Below, piece after piece: positions 4,763 to 43,777 of a DNA stretch of 64,000 nt. The stretch is from contig NZ_JASGGV010000002.1 of assembly GCF_047602625.1 (NCBI RefSeq), positions 441,734 through 505,733 of the forward strand, in the 5' to 3' direction. Below the pieces are notes generated by a model. It was not told the origin of the DNA. It made no database searches and saw nothing but the letters and a program-made list of their open reading frames with translations. Every line of letters starts with the position of its first letter. The stretch's first letter is position 1. The translations under genes were made by a program, and so were the position numbers. The DNA is from Aestuariivirga sp. (lineage in GTDB: Bacteria > Pseudomonadota > Alphaproteobacteria > Rhizobiales > Aestuariivirgaceae).

Positions 4763-5950
4763 ATGCCGCGCGCCCTGCTCCTGTTGCTGCTGATTCTCTT
4801 CGCCCTTCCCGCGCGGGCTGATGACACGGCCGCGCTTCAGGCCACGCTCGACGCCGGAAAAACCGTCACGCTGGAGCCCGACCGCACCTATCACATCCGC
4901 CGCAGCCTGGCGATCCGCCACGCCGGAACGGGCATCATTGGTGATGGCACCGCAACGCTTGTGATGGATTCGGACGCCGGGGCCTTCGACAACGCCTCGG
5001 CTTCCGCGCGCGACCGCTATGGGCCGAACGCCGTGGGCATCATCGCGCGCGGAATCGACCGGCCCATCGTGCAGGGGGTGCGGATTACCTATGCGGGCGG
5101 CATCGATGACCGCTATGTGAAGGCCATCGCCTTCCGCGATTGCACCAATATCGTTCTCGACCACAACGAGGCGTGGAATTTCACCAAGTCCTGGGGAATT
5201 CTCTACATCGGCGGCAGCACCGGCGGCAGCGTGAGCTTCAATACCATCCGCGACAGCACCACCAATTCTTTTACCTTCGGCCAGATCACCGGCATCGAGT
5301 TCGACAATGACGACAAACCTTCTTCGCAAATTCGCGTCGAGGGCAATGACATTCACGATCTCACGGTGGGGCCGCAATTCCTCAAGATGTTTGGATACCA
5401 GACCGACGGCATAAACACCGTGCGGCAGGGCACATCGCATCTGGTGATCGTAAACAACCGCATCAACCATGTGGGCGAGGCCATCGATCATTTCGGCAAC
5501 AGCAGTAGCATCACTGGCAACCGCCTCTCGCGCTGTTATAATTTCTGCATCAAGCTGATCCACGGCGCGCGCTTCAATTTCGTGCGCGGCAACCAGATCA
5601 GTGGCGCCGGGCTGGGCGGCATCGTGCTCGCGGTTTCGGCAAAGAGCCCGCAGGATACGCTGGGCAATGTCATCACCGGCAATGTAATTTCAGGCATCGA
5701 TCCCGACCATGCCTGGGCAGGCCACCCGGCCTTCGGCATCGGGCTGATGTCGGCACCCGGCGCGGCTTTTGGCTCACGCAACAACCGGATCATCGGCAAT
5801 CTGATCGATCTCAGGAACACCGGAGCCATCGGCCTGCGCGCCGTGGGCCGGAGCGGCGCCGGCAATTGCTTCCGCGCCAATATCGTGCTGCACGCCCGCA
5901 TCCGCGCCACATGGCTCAACCCGTCCGTGGCGAATTGCCGGGCTGAATAG
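4763..5950 (+). CDS. secreted right-handed parallel beta-helix repeat protein (pectate-lyase fold)
   Basis: Signal peptide MPRALLLLLLILFALPARA. Repeated N-x-I-x-G-N / GNxI turns (NNRINH, GNRLS, GNQISG, GNVITGNVISG, NNRIIGNLI). Confidence 0.8.
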   Translation: MPRALLLLLLILFALPARADDTAALQATLDAGKTVTLEPDRTYHIRRSLAIRHAGTGIIGDGTATLVMDSDAGAFDNASASARDRYGPNAVGIIARGIDRPIVQGVRITYAGGIDDRYVKAIAFRDCTNIVLDHNEAWNFTKSWGILYIGGSTGGSVSFNTIRDSTTNSFTFGQITGIEFDNDDKPSSQIRVEGNDIHDLTVGPQFLKMFGYQTDGINTVRQGTSHLVIVNNRINHVGEAIDHFGNSSSITGNRLSRCYNFCIKLIHGARFNFVRGNQISGAGLGGIVLAVSAKSPQDTLGNVITGNVISGIDPDHAWAGHPAFGIGLMSAPGAAFGSRNNRIIGNLIDLRNTGAIGLRAVGRSGAGNCFRANIVLHARIRATWLNPSVANCRAE

Positions 5951-5952
5951 GC

Positions 5953-6651
5953 TTACTCCGCCGCCACCAGCTTGCCGGTGAACACAACAGGCCCCGTGGG
6001 CTGGCCGGTGGGAGATCCCCCTTCCGGCTCCAGGCTGACGGCAAACACGGTGGCGCCTAGCGCCGCGCTGTCGGCCTTTCCGAGTTGCGATGAGGGAATG
6101 CGGAAATCGGCGTTGAGAACGCCAAGCGATTGCGGCTTCTCGCGCCCTGCCCCCAGCGCCCAGAGCTCATAGGATTTGCCCTCCGGCAATTGCGCCGTGA
6201 CGGGCCTGACCGTGATGGTGCCACGCGCCGTATCGACGGACGCGAGAAACGCTGGTCCCGGCCCATCGGCCTGCAGCACCGCGACGAAGCGCTGCCCCTG
6301 TGGCTCCGGCTGGGGCTTCAGGATCATCAAACCGGTAAGCGCCGCCGCCAGCGCCATTGCGCCCACGGCAATGCTGCGCCAGCAGTTCACGCGGCGCGTG
6401 AGGTCGATGACGGTTGCCGATGTGTCACCACAGCCGATGGCCGCCATGACGCGGGCTTTCAGATGCGCGGGCACCGGAACGGAGAGCAATGCCTCGGAGA
6501 GCGGAAACAGCCGCCGCTCCCACTGTGCCACGGCAGAAGCAAGCGCAGGATTGCCGGTCATTTCCTGATCAACTGCAGACCGTTCGGCGGCGTCCAGCGT
6601 GCCCAGCGCATATTCGGCGGCGAGGCCTTCGATTTCGTCATCAACGGCCAT
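5953..6651 (-). CDS. anti-sigma factor, RskA (anti-sigma-K) family
   Basis: N-terminal anti-sigma helix (LAAEYALGTLDAAERSAVD), a central TM helix, and a C-terminal YELWALG...SLGVL...VSLEPEGGSPTGQPTGPV pattern typical of the RskA domain. Overlaps the sigma gene stop by 11 nt. Confidence 0.85.
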   Translation of the reverse strand: MAVDDEIEGLAAEYALGTLDAAERSAVDQEMTGNPALASAVAQWERRLFPLSEALLSVPVPAHLKARVMAAIGCGDTSATVIDLTRRVNCWRSIAVGAMALAAALTGLMILKPQPEPQGQRFVAVLQADGPGPAFLASVDTARGTITVRPVTAQLPEGKSYELWALGAGREKPQSLGVLNADFRIPSSQLGKADSAALGATVFAVSLEPEGGSPTGQPTGPVVFTGKLVAAE

Positions 6652-7192
6652 CGAGACACTCCCGGAGGGCAATCAGGCTGCGCCGGAGCAGCGTCTTGAT
6701 GGTGGTGACCGGCCGCCGGTATTGTGCCGCCAGTTCCTCGCGCGACCAGCCGCGATAATAGGCCAGCAGCACCATGTCCTGCCGGTCTTCCGGCAGGCCG
6801 GACAGACACTCGCGCAGGTGCTTCAACTCCAGCGCAAATTCGGCTTCCGGCATGACAGGAGCCTGTGCTTCGGCTGCATCGTCCAGATCGGCGGTGGGCC
6901 GCTCCGACGCCCTCCGGCGCAGATCGATTGCCTGGTTGCGGGCGATGGCCGCCAGCCATGCCATGGGCTGCGCCTGCGCCTGATCGTAAAGCCCCGCCTT
7001 CTGCCAGATCCGCACAAAGGCTTCCTGCAATGCTTCCTCGGCAAGGTCGCTACGCGGCAGCACACTCCGTACCACGGCAAACAGCCGGCTGGCCGTCAGG
7101 TCATAAAGCCTGCCAAAGGCTTCGCGGTCGCCCTTGGAAACCAGAACAAGAAGTGGCGCCAATGTGGCAGGCGCGGGTGAAACGGCTGTCAT
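6641..7192 (-). CDS. ECF-type RNA polymerase sigma-70 family factor
   Basis: Region 2 (DREAFGRLYDLTASRLFAVV...AEEALQEAFVRIW) and region 4 (LPEDRQDMVLLAYYRGWSREELA). Start taken at the internal ATG at 7192 (MTAVSPAP...). Confidence 0.9.
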   Translation of the reverse strand: MTAVSPAPATLAPLLVLVSKGDREAFGRLYDLTASRLFAVVRSVLPRSDLAEEALQEAFVRIWQKAGLYDQAQAQPMAWLAAIARNQAIDLRRRASERPTADLDDAAEAQAPVMPEAEFALELKHLRECLSGLPEDRQDMVLLAYYRGWSREELAAQYRRPVTTIKTLLRRSLIALRECLDGR

Positions 7193-7251
7193 GACACGAT
7201 TACGTAACAGACCTGCCCAAAGGTTGCACCAATCGGCACCTAAATAAACGC

Positions 7252-7281
7252 CAGATGAACGGCGCATTCAGGCCGGGTTCC
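7252..7281. promoter_or_regulatory. conserved 30-nt box, copy A (CAGATGAACGGnnCATTCAGGnnnGGTTCC)
   Basis: 26/30 identical to 8031-8060. Ends 56 nt before the ATG at 7338. On the minus strand it reads GGAAC-N15-CGTT upstream of the ECF sigma gene. Confidence 0.55.
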
Positions 7282-7337
7282 GCAAGCCCCCGCTAGGTTC
7301 CGTTCAACACTGAGATTGGCGAGAGGGACGAAACACC

Positions 7338-7529
7338 ATGATCCGCAACACCATCATCATCCTTGGCGTGCTGGCTACCGCCGCCACGGCGATTGCCGCC
7401 CACAGCGCCCCTCCGGCCGCCAAAACCGGCAATGTCACGGTGATTTACAAGAATGCATCCGCTTCATTTCCGGAAGTGAATGTCTGGCAACCCTGCGCCG
7501 TGGAGGACTGTTCCGACGTTCAATCCTGA
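7338..7529 (+). CDS. small secreted peptide A (63 aa precursor)
   Basis: GAGAGGGA SD. Signal peptide MIRNTIIILGVLATAATAIAA. Shares the N-[VI]-T-V-I-x-K-N core with peptide B. Confidence 0.65.
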   Translation: MIRNTIIILGVLATAATAIAAHSAPPAAKTGNVTVIYKNASASFPEVNVWQPCAVEDCSDVQS

Positions 7530-7629
7530 GTTTGCCGGGCGGCGACGCCTGACAATCCGGAACGTGGGGTGACGATTTTCATCAACGCCCCCTCTCGTGA
7601 AACTTGAAACTTCGCGTTCCGGTTCCGAT

Positions 7630-7718
7630 CTTTAAGTTTCCCCAGGCAGTACTTCCCCCCATCCCCTGCAAACGCTGCCTGCACCTGGAAGGCCCCGGCT
7701 CAGCCCGGGGCCTTTTTT
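7630..7718 (+). ncRNA. candidate sRNA 1 (C-rich-loop hairpin plus intrinsic terminator)
   Basis: Stem 7643-7650/7674-7681 with 23-nt loop ACUUCCCCCCAUCCCCUGCAAAC. Terminator GGCCCCGG-cucagc-CCGGGGCC-UUUUUU (7691-7718). The 5' end is not determined. Confidence 0.55.
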
Positions 7719-7914
7719 CCATGATCACGGGATTTTGTAAAAATCGTTACAAACCTGTCCCGCACTGTGATTTGCATTACAGCGGCGTCCGCACATATGG
7801 ATTAACAGGACATCAACAAACGTGCAGATCGCGGAAACCGGCTGAAAAGCACAACTCAAGGTCGTCAAATACAGTAAGGAACTTTTTAGCTGGCTTGCCT
7901 GTTTACTCGGCGAA

Positions 7915-8008
7915 ACCAATTCTCCCAAAGGCGGCACTTCCCCCATCCCCTGCAAAACGCCGCCTAAACTTGAGGCCCCGGAACAAATCCGGGGCCTTTT
8001 CCTTTTTA
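7915..8008 (+). ncRNA. candidate sRNA 2 (paralogue of sRNA 1)
   Basis: Stem 7929-7935/7959-7965 with 23-nt loop ACUUCCCCCAUCCCCUGCAAAAC. Terminator GGCCCCGG-aacaaau-CCGGGGCC-UUUUCCUUUUU (7974-8008). Stem differs from copy 1 by compensatory changes. Confidence 0.55.
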
Positions 8009-8030
8009 TAGGAAGACAATTTCTAAACCG

Positions 8031-8060
8031 CAGATGAACGGACCATTCAGGGCAGGTTCC
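8031..8060. promoter_or_regulatory. conserved 30-nt box, copy B
   Basis: 26/30 identical to 7252-7281. Ends 57 nt before the ATG at 8118. Confidence 0.55.
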
Positions 8061-8117: not shown

Positions 8118-8306
8118 ATGAAAGCCAGAACGACCATCGCCAGCCTCGCCCTCGCCGCCGTGCTTCTCTCGGCCGGCGCATTCGCGAACAACAACCGGTC
8201 GCATTCCGTGGCGGGCGTCAACGGCATCAACGCCAACATCACCGTAATCGAAAAGAACCAGACGCTTTCCGCCGCCGACATCGTGGCCGCCGACAAGGGC
8301 GTGTAA
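8118..8306 (+). CDS. small secreted peptide B (62 aa precursor)
   Basis: GGGAGGAG SD 6 nt upstream of the ATG at 8118. Signal peptide MKARTTIASLALAAVLLSAGAFA. Paralogous core NANITVIEKN. Confidence 0.65.
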   Translation: MKARTTIASLALAAVLLSAGAFANNNRSHSVAGVNGINANITVIEKNQTLSAADIVAADKGV

Positions 8307-8452
8307 AATTCTCCCGCCTGATTTTCAGGCGGCTTCGGGCGCTGCCATCCGCCGCCCTTGTCCATCCCCAGCCATCTCCCGACGATCAGCCGATTCGCCT
8401 TGGAATCGCAGGCGGCAGCGTGTAGGGAACCCCAAATTCGGGTTCCCCAGAA

Positions 8453-11818
<3,366 letters not shown>

Positions 11819-14989: not shown

Positions 14990-15030
14990 GCGCGTGTCCT
15001 CCAGTTTCAGGAGGGCAAACGCAGACGGGT

Positions 15031-15645
15031 TCAGCGGGTTCCGGCTGGTGGCGGGATATAGCCGGGAAGATGGGCGGCGGCGGGAAGATGCACCAGTGCC
15101 ATCGCTTTCTTTATTGCAGCGTCCATATTCCGGCTGATGTCTTTTTCCAGAATGAGCGGGCGGAAATAATCAGCCCACTGAAATTCCATATAGGGCTGCT
15201 GCGTCTTGAGAAACCCGCCCTTCAGCCGCACGAAACCGGCCAGGCTGCGATAAGGATCATCGGCAAGATCACCAAGCCTCTTTGGCAACGATGACACGGG
15301 ATGGCGCTGGCCCTCCGCATCGGTCAGCATCATGAAACCACGCTTGGCCATGATGCCCCAGAAGTCGGCCATAGAATGCGCAGAAAAATCATCCGACACA
15401 TCGACGGGAGCCGAGAGAAACTTCTCGCGTTCAAGAGCGAGTCCGAGATGGTGGTGGTCAATCACATAGACGCGCTTCTTTGGGCCCAGCACGGCACGGA
15501 TGGGATGCTCGAGAATGAAATTCACAAGTTCCGATGGCCGGCCGCGCAAACTTTCAAGACCGGCGCGCTTGAACTTCACAAGCGCATATCCCACGCTCAT
15601 TTGCGTAGGCCGGAGATCGGCAATCTCCACAACCTGAATCGCCAT
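15031..15645 (-). CDS. ParB-like nuclease domain protein (ParBc_2 type)
   Basis: IADLRPTQMSVG...VIDHHHLGLAL pattern resembles the stand-alone ParB-like nuclease family of about 200 aa. Confidence 0.7.
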   Translation of the reverse strand: MAIQVVEIADLRPTQMSVGYALVKFKRAGLESLRGRPSELVNFILEHPIRAVLGPKKRVYVIDHHHLGLALEREKFLSAPVDVSDDFSAHSMADFWGIMAKRGFMMLTDAEGQRHPVSSLPKRLGDLADDPYRSLAGFVRLKGGFLKTQQPYMEFQWADYFRPLILEKDISRNMDAAIKKAMALVHLPAAAHLPGYIPPPAGTR

Positions 15646-15965: not shown

Positions 15966-16021
15966 GGGTTGTCCTCCTTGTGTGGCAGATTAAACGCCGG
16001 GAGGACCGCAATGTTCCGCGA

Positions 16022-21242: not shown

Positions 21243-22622
21243 ATGCGCCACGCCGCATTGACCGCGATCCATCTTCCCGATTTCGGCAACCCCAAAACAG
21301 AGCCGGCACTTTCGCGCGAGATTTACGCCGCGCGGCTCGAACGTCTTGAAAAGGCTATGGCAGCCGCAGGTTATGACGCGCTTGTGATCTATGGCGACCG
21401 CGAGCATGTGGCCAATATTGCATGGTCCACCGGCTATGATCCCCGCTTTGAAGAAGCGATCTGCGTTATCGTGCCGGGGCGGAAGCCCACGCTGTTCGCC
21501 GGCAACGAGGGTTACCCTTACGCCGAATGCGCCAATGGCGTCTTTGAGCGCGTGTTGTGGCAGCCTCTCAGCCTGATGAGCCAGCCGCGCGATAAATTCC
21601 GTGTACTGAGCGATCTTCTGGCGGAAGCAGGAGTGAAGAAGGGCCAGCGCATCGGCCTTGCCGGGTGGAAGGGTTTTGAGAGCGAGGATGGGGTGTTCGA
21701 TCCGCAGTGGTTTGAAACACCGGCTTATCTCGTGGAGGCGCTGCGTGCCTTTGGGCCTGTCTCCAATGCGGCGCTTCTATTCATGGATCCGTCCACGGGC
21801 CTGCGCGCCATCAATGAGGTGGATCAGCTCGCCTGCTTTGAACATGCGGCCACCCTCACCTCCTCTGCGATCTCCCGCGTGATCAACGGCACCAGGCCGG
21901 GGATGACAGAATACGAGAGCGTGAGTCTCATGAAGCTCAACGGCTTTCCGCACTCCACGCACATCAACATGTGCGCAGGGCCGCGCGCCAGATATGGCCT
22001 GCCCAGCCCCTCCATGCGGGTGATCGAACCGGGCGACCCGATCGTCGTCGGCTTCGGGCTGATGGGCGCGTTGAACTGCCGGGCAGGCTTCATGGTGCGT
22101 GACGAAAGTGAGTTGCCGCCAGCCATCCATGACTATGTGAAGAAACTGGTTGCGCCATACTTCGAGGCCGCCGTGGCGTGGTATGAAACGGTGGGCATCG
22201 GCGTCACAGGCGGCGCGATCCATGATGCCGTCATGTCGCGCCTAGGCGATCCGTTCTTTGGCATCGGCCTCAATCCCGGCCATCTCATCCATCTCGATGA
22301 ATGGATGCATTCCCCCATCCGCAAAGGCAGCACCCGCAAGCTTGCCTCCGGCATGGCGATCCAGTGCGACATCATTCCCGCCACCGGCACAGACTACTTC
22401 ACCAGCAACATCGAGGATGGCATTGCGCTTCTGGATGATGCAGGGCGGCGGGACTTTGCGGTGCGTTACCCGGAAGCCTGGCGCAGAATCGAAGGCCGCC
22501 GCGCCTTCATGATCGAGACGCTGGGCATCAGGCTGAAACCGGAAGTGCTTCCCTTCAGCAATATCGCGGGCTGGCTGCCACCCTTCTGGCTGAACCCCGG
22601 CATGACGATGGCGATGCGGTGA
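21243..22622 (+). CDS. M24 (creatinase/Xaa-Pro peptidase, pita-bread fold) family protein; canonical metal ligands not evident
   Basis: N-terminal creatinase-like domain (YDALVIYGDREH...) and C-terminal pita-bread pattern (EPGDPIVV...GIGLNPGH...SNIEDGIALL). The two Asp ligands of the GDxVxxDxG...D motif appear substituted. Confidence 0.7.
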   Translation: MRHAALTAIHLPDFGNPKTEPALSREIYAARLERLEKAMAAAGYDALVIYGDREHVANIAWSTGYDPRFEEAICVIVPGRKPTLFAGNEGYPYAECANGVFERVLWQPLSLMSQPRDKFRVLSDLLAEAGVKKGQRIGLAGWKGFESEDGVFDPQWFETPAYLVEALRAFGPVSNAALLFMDPSTGLRAINEVDQLACFEHAATLTSSAISRVINGTRPGMTEYESVSLMKLNGFPHSTHINMCAGPRARYGLPSPSMRVIEPGDPIVVGFGLMGALNCRAGFMVRDESELPPAIHDYVKKLVAPYFEAAVAWYETVGIGVTGGAIHDAVMSRLGDPFFGIGLNPGHLIHLDEWMHSPIRKGSTRKLASGMAIQCDIIPATGTDYFTSNIEDGIALLDDAGRRDFAVRYPEAWRRIEGRRAFMIETLGIRLKPEVLPFSNIAGWLPPFWLNPGMTMAMR

Positions 22623-35892: not shown

Positions 35893-36026
35893 CACTGTCT
35901 CCTTCGTTGATGGCCGTCGGTGGGAAAACGGGAGAGCGGGAGTGAGGTTCCATGAATTTTGCCTGCTGACAGGAGATGGCAGCAGCCCCGCTTTGCCTCA
36001 GCAGCAGCGCGCCCTATATTGGGGAC

Positions 36027-39904: not shown

Positions 39905-40040
39905 GGCAATTCCTGTTCTCGGCATAAGCTTAGCATCGAATGATGCCAACTTCAATGCCTTCCCCGGCAGCATCGAGCATCGGAACCGCGCATCTTCTTC
40001 GGCGTTGATTGGCCTGAACAGGCATCAAAAGAGGCCCATC

Positions 40041-43627: not shown

Positions 43628-43777
43628 GCTTCGGAACTTCCCCGACAATCATGCGTTTTTGAGACTCCGCCATGCGCGGGGTGACGATGCGCTGACGCAA
43701 CCACAATCCCGCCACAGCGTTTCCAAAGTCTCGCCCCTGCACGGGCTGAGACTGCGGAAAACAAATTGGGGATTGGG

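Follow-up and report, generated by a model that had tools for sequence, protein, structure and literature searches.

The question raised by this locus is what two similar hairpins, each followed by an intrinsic terminator, do beside the genes of an extracytoplasmic function (ECF) sigma factor and an RskA-type anti-sigma factor. They are located on the plus strand between these two genes and carB (8453–11818) in a 64,000-nt stretch of Aestuariivirga DNA (contig NZ_JASGGV010000002.1, positions 441,734 to 505,733), here called the window. An earlier note, made from the sequence alone, took them for paralogous small RNAs (sRNAs) whose C-rich loops could pair with G-rich Shine-Dalgarno (SD) sequences. 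We found that the elements are members of a previously undescribed multicopy structured RNA family. Judging from sequence comparisons, they probably act as base-pairing sRNAs, some of them borne in 3' untranslated regions (3'UTRs), that regulate porins in free-living Hyphomicrobiales (Aestuariivirga and relatives). Control of outer-membrane porin production is probable because the loop is perfectly antisense to a conserved box in porin leaders.

Structure and conservation of the RNA family

The seed hairpin of copy 1 (7643–7681, plus strand) has an 8-bp stem, with the arms CAGGCAGU (7643–7650) and GCUGCCUG (7674–7681), around a 23-nt loop, ACUUCCCCCCAUCCCCUGCAAAC (7651–7673). It is followed by an intrinsic terminator (7687–7718), which consists of the stem GGAAGGCCCCGG (also written GGCCCCGG)/CCGGGGCC at 7687–7712 and six U residues at 7713–7718. 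The seed hairpin of copy 2 (7929–7965, plus strand) has a 7-bp stem, with the arms AGGCGGC (7929–7935) and GCCGCCU (7959–7965), around the 23-nt loop ACUUCCCCCAUCCCCUGCAAAAC (7936–7958), and its intrinsic terminator (7972–8007) is a hairpin at 7972–7996 followed by UUUUCCUUUUU at 7997–8007. The minimum-energy folds given by RNAfold are the proposed two-hairpin structures, at −33.6 kcal/mol for copy 1 (z −3.1) and −35.2 kcal/mol for copy 2 (z −4.9). Both terminators were also called by the terminator scan on the plus strand, and the terminator stem of copy 1 covaries in relatives.

Our reading of the two elements agrees with that of the earlier note. Both loops have 23 nt, kept by two compensating 1-nt indels between the copies, the stems differ by an A-U to G-C and a U.G to C-G change, and there is no similarity between the two terminator loops. 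The spacing of the copies is 286 nt, as against about 285 nt in the note, and the setting is AT-rich (GC 0.48–0.55 at the elements and 0.60–0.68 in the flanks).

The loop core was used as a pattern, CCCCCATCCCC(N)TGCAAA, to scan 185,579 species genomes, and at least 119 stretches were found. Most of the matches listed were chance occurrences in unrelated phyla, such as a coding motif of Clostridia, and the genuine ones listed all came from Aestuariivirga and other Hyphomicrobiales. Among the listed matches, only two contexts were not due to chance: in one the motif is part of the hairpins, and in the other it is reversed and stands in porin gene leaders. We gathered 54 family members from Aestuariivirga-like Hyphomicrobiales and built a covariance model (CM) from the relatives. 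In the window the model has only two family matches, copy 1 (90.1 bits) and copy 2 (77.2 bits), and everything else scores 24 bits or less; in the relatives it also recovers more divergent members. The unit of the family is a stem of 7–10 bp, a C-rich loop of about 23 nt, a short spacer and an intrinsic terminator. Its loop core, CCCCCCAUCCCCUGCAAA (consensus CCCCC(C)AUCCCCUGCAAA), is nearly invariant across the 54 members.

The stems covary around this loop. In the CM alignment of the 54 members, which is fitted to the structure itself, 96.6% of the stem cells pair and double changes occur in 13 of the 17 pairs; all 8 pairs of the loop-bearing stem have compensatory changes, and slid controls pair at 31–52%. 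A MAFFT alignment of 45 members was concordant: the loop-bearing stem is 88.7% paired, with double changes in 6 of 9 pairs, and none of 500 shuffles reached the observed pairing values. Moreover, wholly different stems surround the same loop core in the family (CAGCCAGA/UCUGGCUG, AGCGGCUC/GAGCCGCU, GGGCGGCC/GGCCGCCC and CUGCUGCUCC/GGGACAGCAG). Since the stems are replaced entirely while the loop core persists, the loop is likely to act as a displayed seed. The earlier claims that the elements are paralogous and form a structured RNA under selection are thus borne out, and the loop recurs between covarying stems in dozens of related genomes, well in excess of chance. Extra copies are found at unlinked loci (L115, L119 and L071; loci of relatives are given L numbers here), so the family is multicopy. 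Both element types are also present in a cultured strain, Aestuariivirga litoralis KCTC 52945 (L033), with hairpins at L033 4102–4143 and 4504–4545.

No known Rfam family reached its gathering score in the whole window or at four related loci, in line with the earlier impression that the loop was not a familiar one. At E ≤ 10 the locus gave only sub-threshold matches, which are largely driven by the terminator. These were MmgR/suhB (RF00519, 22.1 bits with a gathering score of 41, mostly over the terminator), BjrC68 (RF02353, 19.2 bits with a gathering score of 39) and AbcR (Rfam ar15, RF02345, 15.3 bits with a gathering score of 40). The cuckoo/ar14 models of Rfam had zero matches at the locus even at this threshold. 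In the literature, we found no description of this RNA and no sRNA work in Aestuariivirga.

A conserved box in porin leaders

The loop is the perfect reverse complement of a leader box, UGCAGGGGA-NN-GGGGG, upstream of Porin_2-type porin genes. The leader sequence, GUUUGCAGGGGAUGGGGGG(G), is located 35–53 nt upstream of the AUG of genes that are often tandem paralogues. These genes encode outer-membrane proteins of 390–520 amino acids with a signal peptide, and one paralogue matches Pfam Porin_2 at 2.8e-9. In five metagenome-assembled genomes (MAGs) that contain both the hairpins and the porin leaders, the complement within the same genome is 12–20 nt long over all pairs, and the best pairs reach 15–20 nt in every MAG. 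Copy 1 of the window has a 20-nt perfect complement to the porin leaders of L100 and L110, which is CCCCCCAUCCCCUGCAAACG (7655–7674) and comprises the last 19 nt of the loop and the first base of the 3' arm. Copy 2 has a 17-nt perfect complement to porin leaders of relatives. We used the length of the contiguous complement because the full-length RNAduplex energies (−60 to −83 kcal/mol) ignore intramolecular structure and are inflated, and these energies were set aside.

Since the first leaders had been found with the loop pattern, porins were resampled by protein similarity alone. This sample had 80 metagenome loci with 42 distinct leaders. The box is 90–100% conserved in the 42 leaders, which is the level of the SD and the AUG, in porins down to 30% identity, and the two variable bases within it are UG, UC, CC or UU. 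There are 19 porin contigs that begin 64–81 nt upstream of the AUG and end just past the gene; since they resemble transcripts, the box, about 30–50 nt downstream of their starts, is most likely inside the porin mRNA. The SD is part of a conserved hairpin (CUCCAAG...CUUGGGAG), which is about 20 nt downstream of the box. For the GAUC variant of the box, L092 has a matching loop variant, CCCCCGAUCCCC, and the distant L205 has a loop of the GAUC type; no genome was found in which a variant box and its matching loop occur together. The earlier proposal of seeds against G-rich SDs is thus changed, in that the convincing partner of the loop is the 15–20 nt porin box, which is upstream of the SD and outside the window.

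Three side observations concern the porin genes. Many contigs among L125–L204 are 1.3–1.6 kb long and wrap one porin gene exactly, starting near CGTGCAT and about 12–20 nt downstream of a promoter-like TTGACC-N17-GA(C/T)AAC. They look like assembled mRNAs, which would imply very high porin expression in nature. Copy 1 (7674–7696) also resembles the reverse complement of the L081 and L083 porin leaders past the loop (CAAACG(C/G)UGC), and after a 6-nt insertion its CUGGAAGGC is complementary to GCCUUCCAG of the leader, a feature not present in all family members. The extended similarity suggests either a longer pairing or that a porin leader, duplicated in inverted orientation, gave rise to the sRNA gene. 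Finally, the porin genes of relatives have CTGTGGCAA-N4-GTTACAG about 150 nt upstream of the G-rich box. Similar palindromes, TTGTAAAAATCGTTACAA and CTGTGATTTGCATTACAG, are found between the two sRNA copies at 7737–7754 and 7766–7783 and are kept in L001 and L005, and they may be a transcription-factor site common to the porins and the sRNA locus.

Transcription and genomic setting

The order of genes at the locus is conserved in relatives whose sigma factors are 93%, 77% and 68% identical: the sigma and anti-sigma genes are followed by two to four small open reading frames (ORFs) with hairpins and then by carB. Both hairpin types, with the same loop, are found in these syntenic relatives. In L004, L005, L009, L017, L028, L033 and L095, only 10–30 nt separate a small-ORF stop codon from the start of an element of the copy-2 type. 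In L004 and L005, this distance is 10–20 nt, and the small ORF is one that the window genome lacks. Because the preceding ORF of the relatives is absent here, copy 2 of the window is likely to be an orphaned 3'UTR module with non-coding DNA before it. Copy 1 is in the 3' region of small ORF 1 (7338–7529, plus strand, from the ORF list; 63 amino acids with a signal peptide), which has syntenic homologues in relatives. No terminator was found by the terminator scan between this ORF and 7687–7718, so the copy 1 terminator is the only one for ORF 1. Copies without a preceding ORF are copy 2 of the window and those at other loci in L115, L119 and L071. The elements are thus more than the separate sRNA genes of the earlier view: the copy-2 type follows small-ORF stop codons in relatives, and in RNA contigs of L058 a copy-1-type hairpin is joined to the small ORF upstream of it.

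These contigs come from the locus of a relative. No RNA run had the window's own sequence, and the runs that share words with it are metagenomes of relatives that match conserved blocks only. More than 20 freshwater metatranscriptome runs have words from the L058 locus, and Logan contigs span the last 60–140 nt of the small ORF 1 homologue, the spacer and the hairpin. On the window, these contigs align with nothing but the common hairpin (about 7638–7679), their upstream parts being from other strains, and no L058 contig maps downstream of the terminator. The region is thus transcribed at the relative's locus, and at least part of the RNA, as read from these unstranded contigs, joins the small ORF to the hairpin in one transcript. 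Two candidates were rejected. A common contig end at about 7678 (L058 position 676), considered as a 3' end, is probably an assembly artefact, because it is about 31–38 nt into strain-shared sequence, where the k = 31 assembly graph merges. Short contigs with small-ORF homologues, considered as possible transcripts, turned out to be metagenome contigs.

Some copies might also have promoters of their own. Copy 1 is preceded by a candidate sigma70-type promoter at 7604–7632 on the plus strand (TTGAAA at 7604–7609, a 17-nt spacer and GATCTT at 7627–7632), with a predicted start at about 7638–7641. The motif CTTGAA-N17/18-(G/C)A(T/C)AT(N)T is found at a constant distance, about 13 nt before the stem, in all copy-1-type relatives, and the promoter-like hexamers of copy 1 were not called by the consensus promoter scan. 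A candidate ECF/EcfG-type promoter precedes copy 2 at 7878–7903 on the plus strand (GGAAC-N17-TGTT, predicted start at about 7910). It is a near-match to the EcfG-type promoter (GGAAC, 15–17 nt, CGTT), of which there is none upstream of copy 1, and in L001, the closest relative, the corresponding site fits the consensus exactly (GGAAC-N17-CGTT). Since copy 2 here lacks the ORF found before its type in relatives, its promoter in the window may be ECF/EcfG-like. This is weakly indicated, because only two related genomes carry the motif.

A second kind of promoter- or operator-like motif occurs twice. The first, TAAAC-N4-GATGAAC-N4-CATTCAGG-N4-GTTCC at 7245–7281, falls in the gap that separates the ECF sigma gene from small ORF 1, and the second, at 8024–8060, is about 16 nt past the copy 2 terminator and 57 nt before small ORF 3. 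The two occurrences of the core, TAAAC-N4-GATGAAC-N4-C(A/G)TTCAGG-N4-GTTCC, compare with 0.07 expected in the window. The motif precedes every small secreted-protein ORF in the window and in relatives, and it follows copy-2-type elements in the same arrangement in L004, L005, L028, L038, L045, L087 and L095. It can be read as an ECF-type −35/−10 pair on both strands, TAAAC-N15-CATTCA on the plus strand and GGAAC-N15-CGTTCA on the minus strand. Both the small ORFs and copy 2 have ECF-like motifs on their upstream side, with ambiguous strand and spacing. The motif may be a bidirectional promoter for the sigma operon and the small ORFs, and its second copy would then fire antisense into copy 2. 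In addition, a conserved GCCCCCUCUCG box (7587–7597, plus strand), kept in most relatives, is about 45 nt upstream of the copy 1 hairpin. It is complementary to the ribosome-binding region of the small ORF, CGAGAGGG (7320–7328), with a count in the window that is not above chance, and it could be a second seed or take part in pairing between the 5' and 3' UTRs.

The sigma gene (6641–7192, minus strand) is SigK-like and has matches to Pfam Sigma70_r2, Sigma70_r4_2 and Sigma70_ECF. Its best NCBIfam matches, PRK12514 and SigK, are both under the cut-off, and it is not EcfG. The anti-sigma gene (5953–6672, minus strand) is of the RskA type (Pfam RskA_C at 2.1e-22; NCBIfam NF052375 with 113 bits and a cut-off of 100). 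Downstream of copy 2, small ORF 3 (8118–8306, plus strand) encodes 62 amino acids with a signal peptide; it belongs to a paralogous family and is called as a 62-amino-acid gene in L001. No Pfam or NCBIfam family matched the small signal-peptide ORFs. In relatives, the array of small ORFs is closed by a secreted Cys-rich protein of about 110–140 amino acids (L004 2557–2988, L005 2203–2625 and L033 about 4862–5185). It has the motif C..DCGKPAADAFC..GF...C.G..C..F.Q.KC and no family assignment, and its gene is absent from the window genome. Directly before the carB start, a hairpin GGGAACCCCAAATTCGGGTTCCCC (8424–8448) is kept in L001, L004 and the contigs of relatives and may be a carB leader element.

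Elsewhere in the window, there are five exact EcfG consensus sites (GGAAC-N16/17-CGTT), with 0.68 expected by chance. Three are on the minus strand (15018–15042, 15993–16017 and 35927–35951) and two on the plus strand (39982–40006 and 43633–43657), and they mark candidate members of a general stress response regulon. In a paper on the ECF sigma factors of S. meliloti, we found nothing on promoters of the RskA-associated type.

Mechanism, alternatives and known systems

We propose that the units are transcribed on the plus strand by one of two routes, within a small secreted-protein mRNA that ends in the unit or from an upstream promoter of their own. Copy 1 in its read-through form and, as a rule, the copy-2 type in relatives would be the 3' end of a small-ORF mRNA. 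The own promoter would be sigma70-like for copy 1 and, in the window, ECF/EcfG-like for copy 2. The partner of the loop would be UUUGCAGGGGAUGGGGGG, the G-rich box that major Porin_2-type porin mRNAs have in their 5' leader, and lower porin synthesis would be the most likely outcome of the pairing. By analogy with known sRNAs that target outer-membrane proteins (OMPs), repression is likely; activation instead, like that of katG by GsrN, is conceivable. Pairing might mask a standby or enhancer site, rich in purines, through which ribosomes gain access to a structured ribosome-binding site (RBS), as with IstR-1 and tisB, or it might trigger decay. We favour these two possibilities because a conserved hairpin encloses the SD and the purine-rich box is upstream of it. 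The module may serve an envelope-stress response, as suggested by the adjoining SigK/RskA-type sigma/anti-sigma pair, and it would then be analogous in function to sigmaE-MicA/RybB/MicL and CpxP-CpxQ.

Several points weigh against porin regulation by these RNAs. The box is too far upstream of the AUG for direct occlusion of the RBS, and in folds with the box blocked the predicted accessibility of the SD goes from 0.35 to 0.19 and from 0.32 to 0.26, a small and inconsistent effect. Because the loop pattern had been used to find them, the first porin leaders carried an ascertainment bias, which was corrected only by the later protein-based sampling. There is no porin gene in the window by tblastn, and its two copies were matched to leaders of relatives, its own porin being outside the window. 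Moreover, the box is conserved far beyond the lineages in which the sRNA was found, and thus its main role may be a different one. The promoters were assigned by consensus only, and that of copy 1 looks to be of the housekeeping type rather than the ECF type. The RNA data are unstranded, low-depth Logan contigs from libraries without size selection, in which neither a discrete species of 80–100 nt nor a strand was demonstrated, and a strand test of G.U against A.C pairs was weak (17 against 13).

The hairpins could be purely cis-acting 3'UTR modules, such as a stabilising or processing hairpin or a protein-binding site before the terminator, with no role in trans. The start of copy-2-type elements right past small-ORF stop codons would fit this, as would RNA contigs that are continuous with the upstream ORF while no discrete short transcript was demonstrated. 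However, it leaves unexplained an exact match of 15–20 nt to an independently conserved box in unlinked porin leaders, and some copies are free of ORFs or, like copy 1, have a conserved promoter-like element of their own, which makes the cis-acting explanation rather unlikely. It is very unlikely that the 17–20 bp shared by the porins and this locus are a double-stranded transcription-factor site and that the RNA complementarity is incidental. The motif is indeed present as DNA at both loci, and other palindromes (CTGTG..TTACAG) are found near the porin promoters and between the sRNA copies. But a DNA site needs no flanking inverted repeats, and the motif is always exactly in the loop of a covarying stem with a terminator after it. 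Furthermore, the porin box is inside the transcribed leader, and the orientation of the motif relative to transcription is strictly opposite in the hairpins and the porin leaders.

The partner and the strand were weighed as well. If the loops were broad anti-SD regulators, their CCCCC and UCCCC tracts could pair with GGGGG or GGGAG at many G-rich RBSs, as GsrN and the cuckoo RNAs act through short C-rich seeds, and porins would not be the main target. Conservation, however, extends beyond the C-runs to the whole 17–20 nt, including AU and CUGCAAA. The earlier note had expected such anti-SD pairing within the window, but complements there to either element are 11–13 nt at most, which is the chance level. 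The longest one that contains the loop is an 11-mer at 22310, inside a coding region and not at a start site, and the GGGGGAA before cytochrome c1, named in the note as a partner, gives only a 7-mer. An anti-SD role in place of porin regulation is therefore unlikely, and as an addition to it anti-SD activity would be compatible. The functional RNA might instead be read from the minus strand, where an ECF-type promoter (GGAAC-N15-CGTTCA, 8060 to 8036) would give an antisense RNA whose G-rich loop would mimic the porin box and serve as a decoy or sponge. A good fold exists for the minus strand too (z −3.5 for copy 2), the motif at 8024–8060 reads as GGAAC-N15-CGTT on that strand, and the RNA data do not distinguish the strands. 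Nevertheless, T-runs follow the GC-rich hairpins on the plus strand only, the stem pair next to the loop is U.G in 11 members and would become A.C on the minus strand, and the elements share their orientation with the upstream plus-strand ORFs. Because of these three features the plus strand is favoured. The elements are also contiguous in RNA with those ORFs, and the motif is at a constant distance upstream of plus-strand ORFs, including ORF 1, which has no preceding sRNA. We consider the minus-strand sponge highly improbable.

The reading that we favour thus remains a multicopy family of sRNAs that pair with porin leaders. A wider version of it is more speculative, and we regard its claims, taken jointly, as doubtful. 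In this version, the locus would be an envelope-stress module centred on the SigK/RskA pair, in which multicopy sRNAs, borne in the 3'UTRs of the small secreted-protein mRNAs, would switch off the major porins. They would do so by covering a G-rich standby or enhancer box of ancient origin, upstream of an RBS locked in structure. The module would be a counterpart of sigmaE-MicA/RybB and CpxP-CpxQ that evolved independently in the Alphaproteobacteria, and the sRNA loop would co-vary with the porin box (AUG/AUC variants of the box with CAU/GAU variants of the loop).

The family offers a clean, testable pair of sRNA and predicted target, with an unusually long and perfectly conserved interaction site, in an abundant and little-studied lineage of freshwater and soil, and a cultured host is available in A. 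litoralis KCTC 52945. Its setting, with an ECF sigma factor and small exported proteins, gives a hint of the conditions in which the system is used. The G-rich box, strongly conserved among the leaders of a large family of porins, calls for an explanation even if the sRNA should not be its ligand.

Control of porins by sRNAs is a textbook feature of enterobacterial envelope homeostasis. For the Alphaproteobacteria, we found no porin-specific equivalent in Rfam or in the literature searched. Like MicF and MicC (and MicA) of Enterobacteria, the RNAs described here would be trans-encoded, have a Rho-independent terminator and have a long complement (about 16–22 nt) to the leader of a major porin, and in both cases paralogous sRNAs are found with paralogous porins. 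However, there is no homology in sequence or structure and no Rfam match. The site here is 35–53 nt upstream of the AUG, whereas that of MicF and MicC overlaps the RBS, and the seed is in a hairpin loop and pairs perfectly, whereas theirs is a single-stranded 5' end with interrupted pairing. The SigmaE-dependent sRNAs (MicA/RybB/MicL, VrrA and FoxI) resemble the family in that our elements are beside an ECF sigma/anti-sigma pair, with ECF-type promoter-like motifs in the locus, a predicted base-pairing site in porin leaders and OMP mRNAs as predicted targets. They differ in that the sigma factor here is SigK/RskA-like and not RpoE/RseA, and the promoter of copy 1 looks sigma70-like. In the far upstream position of the site from an RBS locked in a conserved hairpin, the porin leaders resemble tisB, the target of IstR-1, an analogy of mechanism only.

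As in CpxQ, which comes from the cpxP 3'UTR, the mRNA of a small exported protein from a stress locus ends here in a hairpin and terminator, and the hairpin shares the terminator and (in the unstranded, low-depth L058 contigs) the transcript with the upstream gene. CcsR1-4 of Rhodobacter, downstream of a DUF1127 small ORF, are similar in that our copies are in tandem downstream of small ORFs. In contrast to CpxQ and CcsR, some copies here have their own promoter-like element or no ORF, and the small ORFs are neither DUF1127 nor CpxP. The loops of the cuckoo/CcsR RNAs (alpha-r14) carry the anti-SD motif CCUCCUCCC, whereas the loop of copy 1 is the C-rich sequence given above. The earlier note's comparison with alphaproteobacterial C-rich-loop sRNAs is nevertheless apt. 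In form, the family resembles GsrN. GsrN of Caulobacter, with putative homologues in Rhizobiaceae, is about 100 nt long, and the C-rich loop of its 5' hairpin, the best-conserved part, pairs with a G-rich mRNA leader (PMC5869019). Its genes usually adjoin an ECF sigma locus, with a GGAAC...CGTT promoter; it is located by ecfG-nepR-phyR and activates katG through a pairing of about 7 nt (PMC5869019). Compared with this published description, our elements likewise have an exposed cytosine-rich loop in a 5' hairpin, but the adjacent sigma factor is SigK/PRK12514-like with an RskA-type anti-sigma factor rather than ecfG-nepR-phyR, the complement is 15–20 nt long, and the predicted target is a porin.

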